A stretch of DNA of 62,453 nt, filler included, from Dimargaris cristalligena (Eukaryota): NCBI GenBank assembly GCA_003614675.1. It is 11 parts of 11 records of this genome, joined end to end, with 100 filler letters (N's around TTAATTAATTAA, not from the genome) between each part and the next. Parts side by side here need not be neighbours in the genome. Positions count along the whole stretch, not along the records: positions 56,910 to 62,453 come from ML003613.1; 10 more parts are not named here. One strand, given 5' to 3'. Positions within the stretch are counted from its first letter, which is position 1, and each line of letters begins with the position of its first letter. The position numbers and the translations under genes were made by a program. Under the pieces are notes generated by a model. The model made no database searches, had not been told where the DNA came from, and worked only from the letters and a program-made list of their open reading frames with translations. Shown piece after piece: positions 2,891 to 62,453 of this stretch.

Positions 2891-5100
2891 ATGGGCTTGC
2901 GAGCAACCTTGAGCATCCAAGACGTGGGATCACCCGCTGCCCAATTCGAGCGTTGGGGGATCGTGTACCGAACGGCCACGATCCCGGTTCAAGCACACAT
3001 CGTCAGGCAGGAACTCCGCCAGCATCGTCTTACTTTGGGTCGATTGACTCAAGTTGGGCTTACAGCGGGCTTGAAAATACTTGTAAGTACAGCCATTCTC
3101 AACCCTTCGAAAAAAGACCCCTTTCCCTAAGCGGGCAATACTACTGGAAAGCAACTCCGGAAACCCCTCCAAAAATTAATAGTGATAACGGCGCCCAAGT
3201 ATATATAATACTACCATACGACATGCATCTAACTACTTGCAATTAATGGTGGTTACTGTTTGATCTGGGTCTACATTAGCCAACTGCCGTCGAGCCTGCT
3301 GCCACATCGCATTTTAGCATCGGTCCTGGAACCCAACTCACCTTGGTCCTTACTGGTAATATTGAAAACAGCCCGCCGGATACATCCTCGAACGGCACCA
3401 ACCGCCCAGCCGGCCTTGGTGGCACCTCCCCCGATCTATTGTCCTCCGAACTACTACCAGGCTTAGAGCAGGCCCACCGGGATCTGCGTACCATTTTAAC
3501 ATTGCCGCTGCAATACCCTCAACATTTCGCCACTCTAAACGTCGAATGCCCCAAGGGGGTTTTATTACATGGGCCCCCTGGGGTAGGCAAAACCTGGCTT
3601 GTTAGTACGGTGGCTCGGGAGTGCCAGGCCCTCCTTCATAATATCAGTGGTCCGGAGATATTTGGGGCCTACCTAGGGGAAAGTGAAGCCAACCTGCGGG
3701 CCGTGTTCGCGGCTGCCGAGGCGCAGGCCCAATCCATGGACCGCCCCACCCTTTTATTTATAGACGAAATTGATGCATTAACCCCCCACCGAAATGACTC
3801 GGGCCAGCACGAGTCCCGCGTGATTGCCCAACTATTGACCCTGATGGATGGTTTGGTGACGCGCGGTCGGTTGGTGGTGATTGCCGCCACGAATAGGCCA
3901 AATGCCATCGATACCGCCCTCCGGCGACCCGGTAGGTTTGATCGAGAGGTGTCCATCGACGTACCCACGGAAACGGCCCGTGCAGCCATCCTTCGTTACC
4001 ACACACGGAAGCTGCCTCTCGCCCCCGATTTGGACCTGGATTATTTGGCGGCCATGACCACGGGCTATGTCGGGGCCGATTTAGCGGCCCTCTGCCGGGA
4101 GGCGGCCCGATCGGTCATTTACCGCCAATTCGAAGCCACCCGATCCACCCAACCCGAAGCAGACCTCCCCGATTCCGGGGCGCCCCTCCCGTTAACGCTA
4201 ACTGATTTTCAGAAAGCCTTAAAATCAGTGGGGCCTTCCCTGCAGCGGGGTCTCAATGTGGAAGTTCCTCCACTAACCTGGGCGGATATTGGGGGATTAG
4301 ACCAGGTGAAACGACAACTCCAACAGGCCGTGGAGTGGCCCCTGCTTTACCCGGATACTTTCCGCCGTCTGGGGTTGAGCACGCCGGCCGGCATTTTGCT
4401 CTACGGTCCTCCGGGTTGCAGCAAAACTACCCTGGTCAAAGTCATCGCGTCCCAGACCCGATCGAGTTTTTTCGCCATCAACGGGGCGGCGCTTTACTCC
4501 TCCTATGTCGGGGATTCCGAGCGCATCCTGCGGGACCTTTTCCGTCGGGCCCGGGCTAGTTCGCCGGCGGTTATTTTCTTGGACGAAATTGATACCATCG
4601 TCGGCAAACGTCATATGGAGGCTGGTGGCAGTGGAGGAGGAGGAGGGGCAGATAATGTTCAAGAGCGGATCTTAACGATGCTACTCACCGAAATGGACGG
4701 TGTGGAATCAAACCACGCTTCGGTCCTACTGGTAGGGGCCACCAATCGGCCCGATATGTTAGACGCCGCCCTTTTACGCCCGGGTCGGTTCGATAGGCTC
4801 ATTTATGTCCCACCCCCGGATCCACCCGCTCGCCGTCAGATTCTGGATATTGCCACGCGGAATACACCACTCCACAGTGGACTTGACCTCGGCACTATCG
4901 TCGAGCGTACCGAAGGATTTAGTGGGGCTGATTTAATGAATTTATGCCGCGAAGCCGCCCTTATAAGCCTCAGGCACCGGCACGAGCCGCTGCCAGTGGA
5001 AATGGTTCATTTTGAGGAAGCGCTAAGTCAAGTGCATCCTTCCATTCCTCCGTCGTCACTAAGGCAATATGCTGTTTTCCAGCAATCCCGTGTTCAGTAG
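2891..5100 (+). CDS. AFG2B: Double-AAA ATPase, AFG2B/SPATA5L1-like. Exons 2891-3082 and 3280-5100; the 5' exon is tentative
   Basis: Two Walker A/B sets (GPPGVGKT/FIDEID and GPPGCSKT/FLDEID) and SRH motifs (ALRRPGRFDR, ALLRPGRFDR). The D2 stretch YVGDSERILRDLFRRARASSPAVIFLDEID...VQERILTMLLTEMDGV fits SPATA5L1 better than SPATA5 or Cdc48. Phase-0 GTAAGT...TAG intron. Confidence 0.85.
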
Positions 5101-30371: not shown

Positions 30372-30573
30372 TATAAAACAAATCGATCTGGTCTCCCTTT
30401 CAAAATTATCCTTACCGTAGCTGTGTATGATTAATTGGTGGATATCACGTTTCTAGTCACCTAATCATCCATTAGTTGTCACCCTATCACTTATTTTTAT
30501 ATTCTTCATATTCGGGATACGCACTTTATTCAGTATTTAACCACCTCCACTGCACCGGACTCGGTCATTCACT

Positions 30574-33138
30574 ATGCGTGTCGTTTCATTGTGGGCTGTT
30601 CTAGCTACGGCCCTTCTAGGCAATTTGCTCCCAGTCATGGGCCAAATAGTGGGAGGTCCGAGCAGTGATGAATACACCACTGTTCCCCACAACTACATCG
30701 TCAAATTCGATGGTGAACCTGGTGATTCGACAGAGTCCAACGCATTCTTTGCCCAGATGGCCGCTGTTGGCATCCCCTTCACAATCGTGGCCAATTATTC
30801 GGTGTTGTTGAACGGGGTGAGTCTCGGTGTGGACGATCAGTATAACGATGCCATGGCTTCCTTCCTAGGGGTCCAAGCCGTGTGGCCCCTGGGTATTAGT
30901 AGCCTGGATGTGGCAACGGTCCAATCATCACAAAATTATCCTACTCAGCCGCCCAAACCCATGCTGGCCCACAACTACACCGGGGTCAACAATGTTCAGA
31001 ACGTGCTGAGCGCCACTGGCCGTAACGTCAAGATTGGCGTGCTCGATTCGGGTATCGATTATAATCACCCGGCATTCGGTAGCTGTTTCAAGACCCCCGG
31101 GTGCCGTGTCCAGTACGGGTATGATTTCGTGGGCGATTTTTTTATGGGTCAAAATCCGGTTCCGGATAATGACCCTTACGATCCCTGCCTAAACCACGGG
31201 ACCCACGTGGCCGGCATACTCGCGGGTAACCACGGCGATTTCAAGGGCGTGGCCCCCGATGCCACCATTGGTATGTATCGTGTGATGGGCTGCTACAATA
31301 TTGTCACTGAGGCCATCGTGATTCAGGCTCTCGAACAAGCGTATTTGGACGGAATGGATATTGTCACCATGTCCATTGGATTCCCCGGTTCTTGGGGAGC
31401 CTCTGCCTCGGGTGATGCTGCAGAGGCACTGATCAAGCTAGGTGTCTTCGTAGTATCGGCCGCCGGCAACCGGGGCCAGGATGGAATGTGGTCAATTGAC
31501 GGACCGTCGGTTCGGAATACACTTGTTTCAGTGGGCTCTGCTGAAATGCCCTTTCACTACAGCCAGTACCTCAACGTGACTTCCGATGAGCTCGTAGGGA
31601 TTCGCCGTACTATGTTTCAGAGTAGCGTAGGCTCTTTCGACATCAACCAGGCCCAGTTTGTCCGTGGTTTGGCCGCCGGAAGTACCACCGATGACTATGG
31701 GTGCAGCGCATTGCCCAGCTTTACGGGAAAGATGGTCCTTGTCCAAAACGGTGGTTGCAACATGTATACCAAGGGCCTGAATGTCCAAAATGCCGGGGGC
31801 ATTTCGATGGTTGTGTACCAGAGCGACGGTAGTGACCCTGTCACTGTTGCATACGAATACGAGCTGTACCTCCCTGCGGTGGCCATTTACAGGGCCGACG
31901 CAGTATACTTGATCAATAAGTTTAACTCCGTGGGCACCATCACCGTTTCAGTAGGACCGGATAATATTATCTTCGACTCACTGACTCCTCGTGCCCCTTC
32001 TGCCTTTTCATCCTGGGGACCCGGTCCCAAGTCCGAGGTGAAACCTGAACTTCTCGGTCCCGGCTCTAACATCTACGCCCCCTGGCCACTTACGCTAGGA
32101 TCATACGGCATCATATCCGGAACCTCGATGGCTACTCCTTACGTCGCTGGTGTGGCTGCTCTGTCCATCGAATACAGCAAGTCCAATGTCAACGGAGGAA
32201 CTCTGACGTCCATTGTTAACACCGCTCGTCCCCAAATTAACGCCGCCAGCCTTACCTACTACCCGGTGATTCAACAGGGGGCTGGCATTGTCAATGGTTA
32301 TGGCGCCACTATCTCCCCGATAATTTTTAATGTCACCACTATCAATGGCACCTTCCCTGATACTGATTGGCGTGATTTCGACAAATTTTTCAAATACAAT
32401 AACACGGGAAGTACTACCTGGGCCTACAAGCTACAATCAGCCAATGCCCAGAGTGTTTCTGGATTCGATAAAACTAAAACCCTGTCCATTCCTCCCATCA
32501 CCAATACGAAAGCACCCGATGTCTGGTTATCCACAACCTCACTGAATGCCGCCGCCGGCAAGACGGGCTATTTCGACATCAATCTTGACCACTCGTCCTA
32601 CGAACGTGCCGATTTGTTCATCTATAACGGCTACCTTATTATGTATCCCACCGCGGGGGTTTCGACGGGCTTCAACTACACTATCCCCTTCAGCGGTATA
32701 TCGTATTTTTCAACTCAGGTTCCTCTTCTTCCACCCCTAGCCACCGGTAACCCTTGCCTGATTCAGTACAAAGAGAACATCTGCCTTAACGAACTCCGTA
32801 CCTTTCAGATTCCCAATATCTACCCAGCCATGTTGTTCCGTATTCAACACCCCGTTTACCGTATCCGTATTTGCATCGCCCACGCCGCCACCCCCACTTT
32901 AATTCATGCTACAGTGACCGATACCCATATGTATAATATGGCGCGCAATATGCAGTCCGCTGGTACTATAAATTACACCTATCGTTGGACCGGTCTGGTA
33001 TTTTCTAATGGCTTTCCTACCCAACCGTTCTATCCTGTCAATGGGGACTACGTGTTCTTGGTGTATTTCTACACCTATCGTGCCAATATTGACCCCCTTG
33101 TGTGGAATTCAATTCCGATGACTATAAAGTCGCCCTGA
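30574..33138 (+). CDS. Secreted S8 subtilisin-like protease with pro-domain, PA insert and C-terminal beta-rich extension, 854 aa, intronless
   Basis: Signal peptide. Triad motifs VLDSGIDYNHP, HGTHVAGI and SGTSMATPYVAG. Oxyanion AAGN. PA-like GKMVLVQNGGC...NVQNAGG. Confidence 0.95.
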   Translation: MRVVSLWAVLATALLGNLLPVMGQIVGGPSSDEYTTVPHNYIVKFDGEPGDSTESNAFFAQMAAVGIPFTIVANYSVLLNGVSLGVDDQYNDAMASFLGVQAVWPLGISSLDVATVQSSQNYPTQPPKPMLAHNYTGVNNVQNVLSATGRNVKIGVLDSGIDYNHPAFGSCFKTPGCRVQYGYDFVGDFFMGQNPVPDNDPYDPCLNHGTHVAGILAGNHGDFKGVAPDATIGMYRVMGCYNIVTEAIVIQALEQAYLDGMDIVTMSIGFPGSWGASASGDAAEALIKLGVFVVSAAGNRGQDGMWSIDGPSVRNTLVSVGSAEMPFHYSQYLNVTSDELVGIRRTMFQSSVGSFDINQAQFVRGLAAGSTTDDYGCSALPSFTGKMVLVQNGGCNMYTKGLNVQNAGGISMVVYQSDGSDPVTVAYEYELYLPAVAIYRADAVYLINKFNSVGTITVSVGPDNIIFDSLTPRAPSAFSSWGPGPKSEVKPELLGPGSNIYAPWPLTLGSYGIISGTSMATPYVAGVAALSIEYSKSNVNGGTLTSIVNTARPQINAASLTYYPVIQQGAGIVNGYGATISPIIFNVTTINGTFPDTDWRDFDKFFKYNNTGSTTWAYKLQSANAQSVSGFDKTKTLSIPPITNTKAPDVWLSTTSLNAAAGKTGYFDINLDHSSYERADLFIYNGYLIMYPTAGVSTGFNYTIPFSGISYFSTQVPLLPPLATGNPCLIQYKENICLNELRTFQIPNIYPAMLFRIQHPVYRIRICIAHAATPTLIHATVTDTHMYNMARNMQSAGTINYTYRWTGLVFSNGFPTQPFYPVNGDYVFLVYFYTYRANIDPLVWNSIPMTIKSP

Positions 33139-52529: not shown

Positions 52530-53151
52530 CTACATTGTCATTCCAATTTCAGGTAAAGAGCAGGCGGAAGAATTTGGCGAGGGGTAGTCGGAATAGCTCT
52601 GTCCCTCCACCGGGACCATATTATTCAATAAGTCGCGCTCTCCGTCGGCCCAGGAAGTGGGAACATATTTCCAGAATTTTATATCCCAGTACATTAAATG
52701 GTGGGTGGCTAAACGAGCACTAGGAGTATGCTTCTGACTTCGGCATCCAAATTTAGTCTCCATGGCATTATTCAGGTCGCAAGCAAAGGTCTCGTGCGTA
52801 CGCGGGCAGATGTAGTATTCTTGGTTAAAATTACGGTAGGACCACCACTTGGGCAATAAAACGGGGATCACGTCGCGTCCATTGGTTACGCGGTGCACGT
52901 CTTTAAACTGCATCTTATTAAAGTGCTTGACGAATTTCTTGTTTCCAATCCGGGGCTGACCATAGGTATAGAGTTCGATGCGAGCTGCGTAATAGGGATT
53001 CCTTCCAAACTCCTCCGCGGCCAGGTTGGCCAGGGCTAGCTCGGGGAAGGTGCAGTTCGCACCATACACCATATAAGCAGATAGAGGAAGATTGATAAAG
53101 GGAATAAAAAAAAGCAGGTGGCTGAGGGTAAGTGGATGATTCTCGGAATGG

Positions 53152-53187
<36 letters not shown>

Positions 53188-54279
53188 ACCCACTCTCGCA
53201 AAAGCGCCACCCCAATTCCACGGCGGGGAATATTAACTCCGGGCTTAATGGTTCATGTCGCAGGAGAAAGAAACCACGAATCAGGACCATAATGCCAAAA
53301 TAATGGACATCGACCTGGCCTACGCCCACCCATATTCCTTGTTTAGAATCCATTTGGGCCTATTTGCCGGAAAACTGGATATTGCGGGGAAAAAACCTCA
53401 CAACAAATGGTACCCAATTTAAATCAATGACATATTGGTCGGAACCTACCTCCACCGAGGGAATGTCCAACAATTACTATACGAGTGTTCCGGCTAGACT
53501 CCAATTCTTTCGAAAATGTATCATAGAACTCGCTCCGGCTCGCCTGATACGATTCGGCAAACCCCGTATGAACGCGAGACCCCTTCACAGCCTTAGGGTA
53601 ATACTTTTTAAACAGTCGGAGATCCGTCACATAGGAAAACATCTCTTTCGAACCACTGAAGGCCAATATCATGAGTTTCTTGGATTCGTTGCGGGCCACA
53701 TAGCCCCGGATGTACGGGTGGATCTTATTGAACTGGTGAACGATAGTCGTGCCATCAGTTCGGCCCAGGTGTTTACATGGTTCACATTTCCAGTCCGTAA
53801 CATCAACGTAAGCCGCCGCGGCATATCTAACCAAGGGTGTGTTAAAAAGAGAGCGACCCAGCCCCGCCATTACAGAAAGTAGTGGGTTCCCGAAGAAGTG
53901 CAGAATTAGTCATGGAGATAGTAAGAATACGAGCCGAACATAGGGATATGGGGTATTTAGCAAAGCAGCCATGTGGTAACTAATGTATATTATACTGAAC
54001 TTACTCAGCGAACACCCTGAGTTCATTTATTTCATTGTCCGAAATCTTCACCAACTTCGGTGACCGACTGGGCAAGTCGTTAGATACATCCTTCGAACCA
54101 GTCTTAACAAGCCAATTTCCGAATCCTTGTGAGCCGACTATCGGATTAATCGATAGTAATAGCCCCAGTAATCCGAAGTAAATGGAACCAATCTAATGGA
54201 CGGTATTATACCCCCCAGAAAAAAACCGTCAGTGAATATATATTTTCTATAAAAAATGCCTTGGAAGCACTATGTTCAT
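52530..54279 (-). CDS. Secreted class-3 (Rhizomucor-type) triacylglycerol lipase, ~359 aa. Exons 54271-54279 (tentative), 54005-54192, 53450-53826, 52530-53035
   Basis: Motifs VHTGF, VGHSLGGALA, YTYGQPRIGN, RVTNGRDVIP and HLMYW. Splice phases are consistent. Signal-like IGSIYFGLLGLLLSINPIVG. Confidence 0.9.
53153..53183. repeat. (CT)n microsatellite in a lipase intron
   Basis: Seen directly in the sequence. Confidence 0.9.
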
Positions 54280-57631: not shown

Positions 57632-58862
57632 CTAGTTCTGGTGGGCATTTAGAGTATTTTTAATGCACTCATCATAGGATGGTAGCTCATCCGGTGAGGA
57701 GTCCCGATTGCCTGCGGTCGCAGTAGAAGGTGCAGTCGGATTATTTGCGATGTTATTCCGAGTATTCGAAGAGGGACCTGATCCAGATTGGGTACTAGTG
57801 ACCGCCGTCACCGTCGCTGCTGCTGCCGCGGCCGATGATTGTGGCTCATCAGAGTCGCGCCCCGCCGAGTAGGGTGGTAGAGGTTCCAAGACCACCGGAT
57901 TCGTATGGCCTTCCGCCAGTCGTTCTTGTACGTTACGCAAAGCCGATGAGAAGTCAAATCCACCACCTTCATTAAAGACCAGTCGCACGGCGCAGGGACC
58001 GGGCAGTTGCCCCTGGGCGACGGGTAAAATCACGCAGTGGTAGGCATTGGGTGCGAACCAAGGTTGGACGAATTGACCGTCCCGGATACGACTGATGGGG
58101 ACAGTGAAATTGGCAAAAGGTCCCGTTGGGAGGTCGTTGATGTAAAGCATGCGTTGGTTGCTAACGTAGACCGTACCCGAGGCGGCCTGTAGATTTATAT
58201 TGCTGCAGTAGTATGGGTTAGGATGAGGAATATACAGATACCCACCCAGTCATGGGGGTTTAAAAATGGAGTTTCGGTTAGTTGGTGGAAGTATGTACAG
58301 TAATGTATTTTAGTTTTACTACTTCCCGGCTCCTGGGTGCAGCTCATAGTTGGTCAAAGTAAAGGTTATAGGCGACGTTATCCGTTTGACTGCTCGGCAT
58401 AGAACGCCGGGTGTACCTACCTACTTCCAGGATAGCCACTGAATATAGTCCAGCAAGGCGATGTCCGAAATGATATATGTGGTAAATTCAAAACATCCAT
58501 AGATGTATTACTGGTATTAGTTGGTCTATCGGGGAATAATATGTCCTTTAAAATTGGCCCAATGTGCCGAAGAAAGGGGCGCGAGGGAGACAGGGGGGGT
58601 TGCCTTTGTGCCGCAACGTCAACTCCTAACCAGTTAAGATTGGCGAGGGTTGGTGTAGCGGCACCATGCGTCATACCAATAAGCCATTAGCCACTCTCTT
58701 TCCAGAGCAATCCAGCGGAATGGGCGTACCAACTACGAATAACACCTACTTTCCATGTTCCAAGGAGCATTTTACACGGCCTTGCTGGAAAAAGAACTTC
58801 TCTTGGGGCAACGGAATGGGTGCCCGGCTGGACGGGTCGAACATGACGCAGTTCAGGGCCAT
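57632..58862 (-). CDS. WBP2: WBP2-like PH-GRAM protein with PY motifs, ~233 aa. Exons 58750-58862, 58421-58438, 57632-58202
   Basis: MALNCVMFD...PIPLPQEKFF, GTVYVSNQRMLY, FVQPWFAPN and LVFNEGGGFDF. LPPY and LPSY motifs. Splice phases are consistent. Confidence 0.8.
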
Positions 58863-59614
58863 TCTAAAAATAGCGTTTGGTGTGAGGAGTGGAAACAAAA
58901 GAAAAAGGAGGTACTACTGCTGTTCTGGGCCGTTCGCTGGAATGGAGAAATCAATAGGAAGAGGGTGAAAATAAGGTATTCGGAATGTCGCCCATAAGAA
59001 TGCGGTGAGCCTATTAGAGTGCCAAGCCCCCACAGTGTCATATGGGCCACTAAAAATCCATTATATTTCGATGGCATAGTTTAGGCAAAACAGTTCCCAT
59101 GATTGTCATCAGACTGAGAAAATGAATGGATATTGGGCTAAAATTCCGCACTGGCGTAATATAAGGGAAGGGGTTTTATAAGGCGTTGGCTGAATAATTG
59201 AATTATAATACAACTCCCTACTATTTTCTAAATCAAGGTGCCATGTAGTTTTACTCAAAGTGTGAACTAGCCGTGTGGGGGGATTGTTGACATTTTCCCG
59301 ATCCACTAAAATAAACAGGAACACCATTTTATTTCAACAAGACTATAGATAGATGGCTTTGTCAAGCCCTAAAAATTAACCAAAAAAAAAGACAAGTGGC
59401 TAGTCAACAGCCGTTCTTTTAGATAATGAACAGAGGAGCGTAGGGGGCATATATAACTGAGATGATTTAACTAGCTGGGTTTCAGTATTTCTCACATTTA
59501 AACTAATATAACGATATGGGTACACCCTAGGCCCGAATTCTACCGCCAGGATCGATCTATGCCTTCAAAGACTCGGCGGCTTCCAGGTAGCGGTTGCGCA
59601 GGGTATCCCATTTA

Positions 59615-60172
59615 TTGGGAGCCGAGTCTGGTGTTAAAGTCCTAAACAGTCTGGAGCTTCTTGCTGTTGACGGTATCGCGGAAGCGGCTGGAAGAGGGCT
59701 CGGTGTCTTCGTTGGAGCCGAACTTAGTATTGAAGCCCTGAACAGTCTGGAACTTCTTGCTGTTGACGGTATCGCGGAAGTGGCTGGAAGAAGGCTCAGT
59801 GTTTTCGTCGAAGCCGAATTTAGTATTGAAGTCCTGAACAGTCTGGAACTTCTTGCTGTTGACGGTATCACGGAAGCGGCTGGAAGAAGGCTCGGTGTCT
59901 TCGTTGGAGCCGAACTTAGTATTGAAGCCCTGAATGGCCTGGAACTTCGGGCTACTGACGGTATCGCGGAAGCGACTGGAAGAAGGCTCGGTGTTTTCGT
60001 CGGAGCCGAATTTAGTATTGAAGTCCTGAACAGTCTGGAACTTCTTGCTGTTGACGGTATCACGGAAGCGGCTGGAAGAAGGCTCGGTGTCTTCGTTGGA
60101 GCCGAACTTAGTATTGAAGCCCTGAATGGCCTGGAACTTCGGGCTACTGACGGTATCGCGGAAGCGACTGGA
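59615..60172. repeat. 96-bp coding tandem repeat, ~5.8 copies, with a 192-bp A-B higher-order unit
   Basis: GACGGTATC[AG]CGGAAG recurs every 96 nt. Confidence 0.95.
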
Positions 60173-60262
60173 ATAAATTTCGTCACTATCCTCGAAAGGA
60201 GCCGCCTGGGTAAAAGCAAGAATAGCAGCGAAAGTCACGGAGGTTGTAGCCGAAAACTTCAT
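59642..60262 (-). CDS. Secreted tandem-repeat peptide precursor, 206 aa, six 32-aa units
   Basis: Signal MKFSATTSVTFAAILAFTQA, then repeats of SSSRFRDTVNSKKFQTVQDFNTKFGSDENTEP. TATATAAA about 150 bp upstream. Confidence 0.85.
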   Translation of the reverse strand: MKFSATTSVTFAAILAFTQAAPFEDSDEIYSSRFRDTVSSPKFQAIQGFNTKFGSNEDTEPSSSRFRDTVNSKKFQTVQDFNTKFGSDENTEPSSSRFRDTVSSPKFQAIQGFNTKFGSNEDTEPSSSRFRDTVNSKKFQTVQDFNTKFGFDENTEPSSSHFRDTVNSKKFQTVQGFNTKFGSNEDTEPSSSRFRDTVNSKKLQTV

Positions 60263-60408
60263 AATGAAAAGTATTGCGTAGTTAAACTGGGGGTTGTGGG
60301 GAGTATATGGTGAAGGGGAATGCCTGGGCGAATAAGTAGTCAAAGAGCAATGGCGTTGGGTAGATATGGGTGAGGTGGGTTGTTGAACAGAGAGCGACTA
60401 AGCGCTCT

Positions 60409-60419
60409 ATTTATATATA
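60409..60419 (-). promoter_or_regulatory. Putative TATA box of the repeat-peptide gene
   Basis: TATATATAAAT on the minus strand, followed by a pyrimidine-rich leader. Confidence 0.5.
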
Positions 60420-62210
60420 GTTGAAGAAATGATGGCAGTGGTTAAGCACACCGGTCAGATAGCATCGGCGGCTCTATAATTGACCCGGGGGACTACCACA
60501 TTTAGCCAAGCCGCCATTGTAAAATGTAGCCCTCCTTCGCTGCCTAAACATCGATGAAAGGGGCAATATAGCCAACTTTCACGGCCCATGTTCAAGACTC
60601 TACAGTGGTACAAGGAAATTCGAACTATTCTATGGACCACCAGCTCTTGTATGCTCCGGATAAAATATACCAGAGTATTTCCTACTTTTCATATTTTCAA
60701 GTAAAGCAACCCTTACTACAGGGCTCCTGGACCAGACTATAGCTAGCCCCCCTCGCAGGCCTCAACCTGAGCCAGTTGGCCAGGGTCATTGCCTATTATA
60801 TTATGTAAGACTGATTTTACTGGCCACACCTGCCTCAATTTCTATTCGCAGGAGGATATAATGAACAGCCCAACTCCAAAGCTCTGGAGGAAAAGGCCCT
60901 CCGGCTTTTACATGTCTCCTCACTAAAAGGACCGGCTATATAATTATCAGGAAACCTCTTCTTTGTACTTTAGCCCAACCAATGCGCCGGCTCGAGATCC
61001 CATGGTTAATGAATATTGAAGAATAAGTGAAATCGTCTGCGCTACATCAGGCATGTGTCTCGCAGTAGTACATGGCAAGGGTGGAGGGAAAATATGACCT
61101 ATTCTTCTTTTCCATAGACGATTCCTTTGGTGCTAGGGCATTTTTCCATAATCGTTGCCACAAATTTCCAAACCTAGGGGGAAATTTACCCAATAGTTCG
61201 ATTGACCTATTTTATTTATTATAATTTTTAAAAAGATACCGATTTGGCCAGTCGAACAAAAAGGCATATCCCCTCTTCGACTACTGTCGGGAAGCGCTAA
61301 ACTAGGGGAGAGGAGCGTCCCCTCAATGCAGAAGATACACTCTCAATGGTGGTGAGGTGGCGGAAAAGAGAGGCGCCCAATAGTCCCAATGGGATATAGC
61401 GGGATTATATTAGTCCGGCCCCATGTTCTTTAGGTCTCGAGCTTGATAAAGTAGACTGGAAACACTCTTCGGTATATGAAATAAGAAACAGCGTTCATTT
61501 ATTATATATAAAATGAATATAGTCGAAAAGAGCAATTTAATATACTTAGAGACGGTGAATTCTTTGGTTGGTTGCCGTTGATTTCTCCTCCCAAAGCCAC
61601 ATCACTGGCCTGCTTTTCGGACCATCTAGTATTCACAAATTATAGGCCGTGGCCACCACTGGGCATATCGCTACTTGCCGTTTCATCCAATTTAAGTTTT
61701 TGAAGGCTATCGAACACCCTGGCTCTAATGGTGGGCGTAGCCAGACGCGACTATTAGTGTAACGAATTGGTCGACGAGGGCTAAAATAACTAATACTGTG
61801 TGGAGGAATAACCGCATTGAATTTTTTATTAGAACAAGACATAGAAAGCTGGTGCGGAATAAATCGCTTCTCGTCGTATACCCTATTTATCTCGGTTGAC
61901 CGACAAGGGTCGTAACAATTTTCTGCCAGTCCGGAGGGGGCGATTATAACGCGAGGAAACATTTGGTAGGGCGCTCCCATTGGCAAGGTTTGCTAATGCC
62001 CTGGATTCTGGGGGGTTAATCTCACACGACGCTTAACGTCGAATTAAAATGTTATGGAATACCTCGTCATTGCCATACTTTCCAAACTATGTACCGATGA
62101 TAAATTACTATAGAATACCAATTGGTTTACATTTCGCGACAAGTACAAGAAAGTAAACTGAATCCAAATCAACTAAACAAAAAATTTGTATGAAGTTGAC
62201 AAAAATATTT

Positions 62211-62292
62211 CGACAACAGCAGGATTTGAACCTGCGCGGGCGGAGCCCATATGATTTCTAGTCATACCCATTAACCACTCTGGCATATTGTC
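62211..62292 (-). tRNA. tRNA-Ser(AGA), intronless, long variable arm
   Basis: GACAATATGCCAGAGTGGTTAATGGGTATGACT-AGA-AATCATATGGGCTCCGCCCGCGCAGGTTCAAATCCTGCTGTTGTCG. T-run terminator just downstream. Confidence 0.95.
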
Positions 62293-62453
62293 ACTTTATA
62301 TTCTATTGTGGTGTGGCAGAATGACTAGTATAATAATAGGCGGGAATGCCTTATAGTCAAAAGATGTAGTAAAATCGAACCCAAGATAACTGTAGGTAAA
62401 ACTACCGGTACAGTTCAGAAGAATGAAAAAAGAGATGTTTTATTAAGAGTTGC

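Follow-up and report, generated by a model that had tools for sequence, protein, structure and literature searches.

A candidate secreted tandem-repeat protein of the mycoparasite Dimargaris cristalligena that may act intact at the parasite surface or host interface

A tandem repeat in a stretch of Dimargaris cristalligena DNA raises the question of whether it encodes a protein and, if so, whether that protein is cut into peptides or acts as a whole. The stretch analysed here (the window) is 62,453 nt long and consists of 11 parts of assembly GCA_003614675.1 joined end to end with filler letters; the repeat lies on its last part, from record ML003613.1. An initial annotation had described positions 59612-60262 as a secreted precursor of several peptides, in which cationic amphipathic cores alternate with acidic spacers without any KR or RR processing site. 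Our analysis indicates that the array is likely to be a real protein-coding gene, and we tentatively favour the view that its product, a young, lineage-specific, secreted and mostly disordered repeat protein, works uncut on the surface of the parasite or at the interface with the host, a view to which we give slightly less than an even chance.

To describe the array, we used Tandem Repeats Finder, which placed it at 59637-60173 with a period of 96 nt (5.6 copies, 87% matches) or, at a period of 192 nt, with 2.8 copies and 95% matches; no other tandem repeat in the 62.5-kb window scored 80 or more. Across the array, a single open reading frame (ORF) of at least 40 aa begins with an ATG; it runs along the minus strand at 59642-60262, and its arrangement bears out the repeat array and the signal-plus-repeat layout originally described. 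Its N-terminus, MKFSATTSVTFAAILAFTQA, has a hydrophobic core whose best 8-residue window reaches 0.83 on the Eisenberg scale, and the putative signal peptide would probably be cut after TQA and before AP, with Ala at -1 and Thr at -3. Each 32-aa unit consists of a 22-aa core, RFRDTV..KFQ..Q.FNTKFG, followed by a 10-aa Ser/Pro spacer, S[ND]E[DN]TEPSSS. The cationic cores and acidic spacers were found as annotated: the cores carry a charge of +3 in types A, B and B5, the spacers -3 and the leader -4. The order of the cores, A-B-A-B-B-B by the SSP/NSK and AI/TV residues, was also recovered, though unit 5 proved to be chimeric (Table 1).

The count of six units needs qualification, as the protein holds five full 32-aa units and a sixth that is stopped after 14 residues by a TAG (59642-59644), in a codon that is CAG (Gln) in the other five units; extending the element to 59612 would need read-through. 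From this TAG, a TAA is reached ten codons later by way of the tail DFNTRLGSQ. Read-through of the TAG, or an intron removing it, was considered and dropped, no splice-like signal being present and the public model stopping at the TAG. The ten codons after the stop (59612-59641, minus strand) keep the repeat in frame, and relative to a B unit they show three synonymous differences (F, N and T) and two conservative ones (K>R and F>L). Because these codons still track the repeat, the nonsense codon that ends unit 6 may be a recent event. The initial annotation had noted the lack of a spacer behind the last unit and took the spacer for a leader of each core; since the in-frame TAG cuts the sixth core, what was seen there is a decayed, truncated array end and not a designed terminal core. 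The stop-bearing end shows no differences in the DNA contigs of three sequencing runs (X1, X2 and X4), and an ESM Atlas entry is identical to the 206-aa sequence letter for letter; these sources agree, so the short form is the publicly recorded one.

The signal-peptide frame shares its openness over the array with two more of the six frames, as is to be expected when the repeat period is a multiple of three. With a codon table derived from 2256 codons in five ORFs of the window that Pfam had confirmed, the codon-usage log-likelihood ratio of the signal-peptide frame was +0.26 bits per codon, and the other open frames scored lower (-0.29 for the other minus frame and +0.12 for the antisense frame). 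The five reference ORFs themselves scored 0.04-0.72 bits per codon in frame and mostly negative values out of frame. On either side of the ORF there are a possible poly(A) signal and a possible TATA box (Table 1), the latter, TATATATAAATA, followed by a C/T-rich tract; the base rate for TATAWAWR being 0.14 in every 140 nt, we give the TATA box modest weight. A and B units differ at 13 nucleotides; 5 of these changes are synonymous and 8 are not, and their distribution is uneven: the 19 junction-side codons (TEPSSS-RFRDTV and FNTKFGS) hold 3 synonymous and no non-synonymous changes, and the 13 central codons 2 and 8, respectively (Fisher p=0.035). The non-synonymous A/B exchanges preserve the charge of both core and spacer, with P9K paired with G16D, and NED with DEN. 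Considered together, the ATG, the codon usage, the TATA and AATAAA elements and the junction-focused, charge-conserving substitutions make it likely that this is a real protein-coding gene.

The array itself bears signs of recent growth. Units 1 and 3 are identical, units 2 and 4 nearly so (3 nt, of which 2 synonymous and 1 non-synonymous), and unit 5, besides its B-type front and A-type back, carries 3 further changes; for these reasons we suggest that the array expanded recently through duplication of an A+B double unit of 192 nt, together with recombination. In four sequencing runs, from three samples and two studies, the contigs break within the array, which is not bridged by any of them. 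The locus shows no difference among the three samples from the two studies, whose genomes are nearly identical.

Searches for relatives returned no convincing match. A word-index protein search gave nothing at E<=0.001 among proteins of 113-361 aa, and nothing at E<=10 among 3569 candidates of 30-112 aa. HMMER, run against 1.84 billion cluster representatives, gave four matches at E<=0.001, all of them long (979-3971 aa), and two were compared with the repeat protein: P0001 is a periodicity artefact, in which a 16-aa EPxSS repeat falls on the spacers at 21% identity, and P0003 has no BLASTP similarity. The scan of JGI metagenomes gave 62 pattern matches, none of which was confirmed; the best match in a PDB sequence search had E=0.35; the Pfam scan of the protein gave nothing above any cut-off; and tblastn and blastn found no paralogue inside the window. 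Feature neighbours in the ESM Atlas were rejected as well, all scoring 0.80 or less, a range that shuffled proteins also reach. As the collection searched includes annotated proteins of other Dimargaritales, the gene would be either species-specific, or too fast-evolving to be recognised, or unannotated in its relatives.

After removal of the putative signal peptide, the product would have 186 residues, with a grand average of hydropathy (GRAVY) of -1.18, 27% Ser plus Thr and 12.4% Phe, and without Cys, Trp or N-glycosylation sequons. Of its residues, 28.5% are charged (f+ 0.140, f- 0.145), giving a net charge per residue close to zero, and the segregation of these charges exceeds that of 2000 shuffled sequences (p=0.0085). 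The best AlphaFold2 model of the full-length protein, built with no alignment, has a mean predicted local distance difference test score (pLDDT) of 60.7 and shows the cores as long beta strands; the remaining four models score 32-50. When unit 2 (type B) was modelled in isolation, residues 2-21 were predicted as a helix (pLDDT about 87) and the spacer as coil. Since the cores are strands in one model and a helix in the other, their conformation would depend on context, and the division into core and spacer appears physically sensible. A Foldseek search of the low-confidence full-length model against the PDB gave no match at E<=0.001; the weak matches (beta-helix enzymes, CsgA) have template-modelling scores of about 0.1 and are meaningless.

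The cores had been described as amphipathic, and a helical wheel supports this in part. The hydrophobic residues do cluster on one face, with a resultant R=0.57 against 0.29-0.32 in shuffles (p=0.038 for core A, p=0.075 for core B). The basic residues, however, share that face: R3 and K10 sit centrally in the arc, with K20 on its margin. The Eisenberg hydrophobic moment at 100 degrees is 0.20-0.21, no different from the mean of shuffled sequences (p about 0.5). For both reasons the cores do not look like a classical lytic cationic helix: of the features of a cationic amphipathic helical antimicrobial peptide (AMP) they have the positive charge, and neither segregated faces nor a high hydrophobic moment.

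The protein was then compared with the classes of repeat-containing secreted products to which it might belong. Kex2-processed repeat proteins (KEPs) are defined by a signal peptide and internal repeats separated by Kex2 sites (PMC6339444; PMC7329392), these sites being KR or RR and, to a lesser extent, KK (PMC6339444). Our protein has the signal peptide, by heuristic reading, and at least 3 tandem repeats of 8-100 aa, and it lacks KR or RR sites between the repeats, as the initial annotation had noted. KR, RR and RK are absent from all 206 residues, and the only dibasic pair, KK, occurs at residues 73, 137, 169 and 201, inside the four B-type cores and away from the junctions; the A units have PK instead. 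No known cleavage motif was found at any core/spacer junction. The expectation that KEP screens would miss such a protein holds for screens restricted to KR and RR; the largest published one takes KR, KK, RK or RR as sites (PMC7329392), and the protein might pass this looser count through its KK sites. The supplement of that study credits D. cristalligena with 11 KEPs, named solely by accession (PMC7329392), and the repeat protein may be one of them.

RiPPs (peptides made by the ribosome and modified after translation) of the dikaritin type require a DUF3328 partner and a core Tyr, the latter for DUF3328-dependent cyclisation (PMC7329392). Tyr is absent from all cores, the single Tyr of the protein sitting in the leader, and no DUF3328/UstYa gene was found among the 149 ORFs of the window that were scanned. 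Amidation at the C-terminus of ...KFG was also dropped, as the amidating enzyme is not known to be a fungal enzyme. The class that the protein does resemble is that of unprocessed repeat effectors, since it combines a signal peptide with repeats that lack Kex2 sites.

To look for processing genes, for which the initial annotation had pointed to the neighbourhood, we scanned 11 long ORFs of the window against Pfam. The scan was next extended to 149 stop-to-stop ORFs out of the 176 that reach 70 aa, the 26 shortest being left out and the target frame being scanned separately. None of the 149 matched UstYa/DUF3328, a kexin P-domain, prolyl oligopeptidase, tyrosinase or methyltransferase, with 2.2 kb visible upstream of the gene.

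Starting from the observed anatomy, frame, composition and missing homologues, we infer secretion, intactness, a location on hyphae or haustoria or in the zone of contact with the host, and a binding partner for the protein. We regard it as intact rather than cut because KR, RR and RK are absent, the hydrophobic moment of the cores is no higher than in shuffled sequence and processing or RiPP genes are lacking among the 149 ORFs. Removal of the signal peptide would leave a 186-residue, net-neutral 'blocky' polyampholyte, whose Phe-rich cationic 22-residue segments could fold to helix or strand upon contact with a partner. The acidic Ser/Thr/Pro linkers between these segments would be plausible sites of O-mannosylation, the multivalency of the repeats could let the protein bind with avidity where its target is itself repeated, cell-wall polymers and a host protein being examples, and duplication and recombination of the repeats would allow the protein to change quickly. 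Several observations weigh against this proposal. Conservation is strictest at both junctions (TEPSSS-RFRDTV and FNTKFG-S), as would be expected of protease recognition sites, and the -3 of each spacer exactly cancels the +3 of a core, as is known of cationic-peptide precursors. The confident helix of the isolated unit, residues 2-21, is predicted to coincide exactly with the core, the spacer remaining coil, and the core hydrophobics lie on one helical face, within a 180-degree arc. A GPI-like C-terminus (glycosylphosphatidylinositol), a Cys-rich region and a known wall-binding domain are absent from the 206-aa ORF, as judged from Pfam and the sequence. Finally, the overall ratio of synonymous to non-synonymous A/B changes, 5:8, is close to neutral.

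Some of these points fit better with a polyprotein precursor, in which a protease other than Kex2, either extracellular or of the secretory pathway, would cut at or near the junctions (SSS/RFR or RFR/DTV, and KFG/S) and set free five or six peptides, cationic, rich in Phe and about 19-22 residues long, directed against the host fungus or serving as signals, the acidic spacers being pro-pieces that keep the cores neutral before they are freed. We consider this less probable than an intact protein, and still the most serious of the alternatives. The layout and the cationic cores on which the initial annotation based its cleaved precursor stand, and three facts continue to fit it: the exact charge balance, the conservation of the junctions and the AlphaFold helix that matches the core. 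The signal and acidic leader followed by alternating +3 cores and -3 spacers, the charge-compensating substitutions, the junction-side codons with 3 synonymous and no non-synonymous changes, the helix 2-21 and coil spacer predicted for the isolated unit and the hydrophobics on one face all speak for it. A cluster of apidaecin precursors also appears among the ESM Atlas neighbours, at a feature score of 0.75, within the noise range, and Zoopagomycota are rich in repeat precursors, with 11 KEPs in this species (PMC7329392). Against cutting, there is no KR, RR or RK and no known processing motif at the junctions, the sixth core is cut short by a stop, and the borders between core and spacer are arbitrary in any tandem repeat. 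The moment no higher than the shuffled mean, with R3 and K10 in mid hydrophobic face, also counts against it, and no protease gene is adjacent, the lone protease of the window being 26.5 kb away, multi-copy and without a kexin P-domain. A fuller version, which we hold to be unlikely, has this early-diverging haustorial mycoparasite produce a Kex2-independent multi-peptide precursor, from which some junction-specific protease frees five Phe-rich cationic 22-mers at the host interface; acidic, possibly glycosylated pro-spacers would keep the 22-mers inert, recognition would take place at the conserved junctions, TEPSSS-RFRDTV and FNTKFG-S, and the freed peptides would turn helical and act on the mucoralean host. 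Processing directed by KK instead, through a Kex2 or yapsin-type cut after the KK of the B cores, would make the protein an atypical, weak KEP yielding fragments of about 30 and 62 residues. We judge this very unlikely, as KK is a poor Kex2 substrate, the PK of the A units would lead to unequal fragments and the cut would break the best-structured segment, the predicted helix 2-21, at its middle; the four KK pairs are nevertheless there, and KK is a lesser Kex2 site (PMC6339444) that is counted in the KEP screen (PMC7329392). A RiPP precursor, ustiloxin/dikaritin-like or of another fungal class, with cores modified by clustered enzymes, is disfavoured to the point of being scarcely credible: it shares the signal-plus-repeat layout only, and a core Tyr, the KR, RR or RK Kex2 sites and, in all 149 ORFs, the UstYa/DUF3328, tyrosinase, prolyl oligopeptidase and methyltransferase genes are wanting.

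All of these explanations presuppose a gene, and it is improbable, to about the same degree as the fuller precursor version, that there is none and that a recent 96-nt repeat is open by chance, with an ATG and a hydrophobic stretch also by chance, as an untranslated ORF or a decaying pseudogene. Such an origin would account for the three open frames over the array, for an A/B ratio that is near neutral and similar in other frames, for the nonsense codon and decayed tail at the array end and for the lack of any homologue, even among the annotated Dimargaritales proteins in the searched collection. It does not explain why the ATG, the signal-like N-terminus and gene-like codon usage come together in this frame alone, nor the TATA box and AATAAA at gene-like spacing, nor the uneven synonymous and non-synonymous changes with conserved charge; the locus is, in addition, the same in three samples from two studies, although those genomes are near-identical.

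Table 1. Features of the repeat locus and of the rest of the window (positions along the whole stretch)
Feature	Position	Strand	Remarks
Possible poly(A) signal, AATAAA hexamer	59611-59616	minus	25 nt past TAG
Remainder of unit 6, decayed, DFNTRLGSQ + TAA	59612-59641	minus	outside ORF
Candidate secreted repeat protein ORF, 206 aa	59642-60262	minus	ATG 60260-60262, TAG 59642-59644
Unit 6, truncated, 14 residues, RFRDTVNSKKLQTV	59645-59686	minus	followed by TAG
Unit 5, chimera	59687-59782	minus	residues 1-15 B-type, 16-32 A-type; R1H
Unit 4, type B with S23F	59783-59878	minus	3 nt from unit 2
Unit 3, type A	59879-59974	minus	
Unit 2, type B, core RFRDTVNSKKFQTVQDFNTKFG + spacer SDENTEPSSS	59975-60070	minus	
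Unit 1, type A, core RFRDTVSSPKFQAIQGFNTKFG + spacer SNEDTEPSSS	60071-60166	minus	identical to unit 3 at 96/96 nt
Acidic leader, APFEDSDEIYSS	60167-60202	minus	charge -4; degenerate spacer copy
Signal-peptide-like N-terminus, residues 1-20, MKFSATTSVTFAAILAFTQA	60203-60262	minus	heuristic reading
Possible core promoter, TATA box, TATATATAAATA	60408-60419	minus	146-157 nt upstream of ATG
Type II AAA ATPase, two AAA domains + lids, Vps4_C-like end	3280-5100	plus	Pfam; long exon
RhoGEF	21.6-22.8 kb		Pfam
C2H2 zinc fingers	24.4-25.1 kb and 51.2-51.8 kb		Pfam
S8 subtilase with inserted PA domain	30541-33138	plus	Pfam; single exon
Class-3 lipase, split over two ORFs	52533-53252 and 53427-53909	minus	profile positions 2-75 and 75-136
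Downstream same-strand neighbour, 172-aa ORF	57632-58150	minus	no Pfam match
tRNA-Ser, anticodon AGA	62210-62293	minus	about 1.9 kb upstream of repeat gene

The surroundings of the repeat gene are those of a haustorial mycoparasite. Neighbouring genes are closest to proteins of Dimargaris, Dispira and Tieghemiomyces, all Dimargaritales (Zoopagomycota), an order that forms appressoria and haustoria, parasitises Mucoromycota and some Ascomycota and has genomes of about 20-30 Mb (PMC9866270). The subtilase is the only protease in the window, and its distance from the repeat gene and multi-copy nature mean that no cluster argument can be drawn from it. Leaving its own copy aside, its 25 best matches all belong to Dimargaris, Dispira or Tieghemiomyces, and those at the top, with 77-79% identity, are D. 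cristalligena entries; several entries of this species span 50-79%. Because several D. cristalligena subtilases are among these best matches, the comparison suggests that a secreted-protease family has expanded in Dimargaritales mycoparasites. The open frame of the subtilase has 865 aa and its public model 833 aa. The two halves of the class-3 lipase are consistent with one gene that has an intron. The 172-aa ORF downstream of the repeat gene contains two PY-like motifs (PPYS and LPSY) and a middle part rich in Ser, Ala and Thr. At 33-47 kb and 54-59 kb there are long stretches without Pfam-recognisable ORFs or transposon domains, and the repeat gene is located in a gene-poor portion of the window.

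Very little is known of the molecules that Dimargaritales use on their fungal hosts, and an orphan secreted repeat protein is a reasonable effector candidate. At present it stands as one more lineage-specific secreted repeat protein, a candidate and not a demonstrated mechanism. If it were cut in spite of having no Kex2 sites, surveys based on KR and RR would undercount the repeat-derived peptides of fungi; and if the fuller precursor version were true, it would represent a fresh processing logic for fungal repeat precursors, one invisible to KR/RR screens.

Among known systems, the protein shares with KEPs such as yeast alpha-factor, Ustilago maydis Rep1, Candida albicans Ece1 and the ustiloxin precursors, as these are described in PMC6339444 and PMC7329392, an endoplasmic reticulum signal, near-identical tandem units, small size and the lack of Cys. 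It differs from them in having neither KR, RR or RK between its units nor STE13-type XA/XP, in having KK in some cores only and in showing no sequence similarity to any protein found. Basic peptides with acidic spacers are also known from the Impatiens Ib-AMP precursor and from insect apidaecins, and, like these, our protein alternates several basic segments of about 20 residues with acidic spacers in one secreted product. Their peptides, in contrast, are Cys-bridged or Pro-rich and are freed at defined sites, whereas the repeat protein has no Cys and no such sites; in Impatiens, four basic 20-aa peptides arise from one transcript (PMC4695807). Compared with the U. maydis effector Rsp3, the protein has no Cys-rich or other non-repeat domain, is much shorter at 206 aa, shows no homology, and its host would be a fungus and not a plant. 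Of 15 repeat-containing effectors in U. maydis, 7 are devoid of Kex2 sites, and one of these, Rsp3, covers the hyphae in intact form (PMC5923269). It is with Rsp3 (PMC5923269) and the repeat effectors (PMC4617103), as far as they are described there, that our protein has in common a signal, repeats without Kex2 sites, restriction to a lineage, signs of repeat duplication and recombination and an origin in a parasitic fungus with a host interface.

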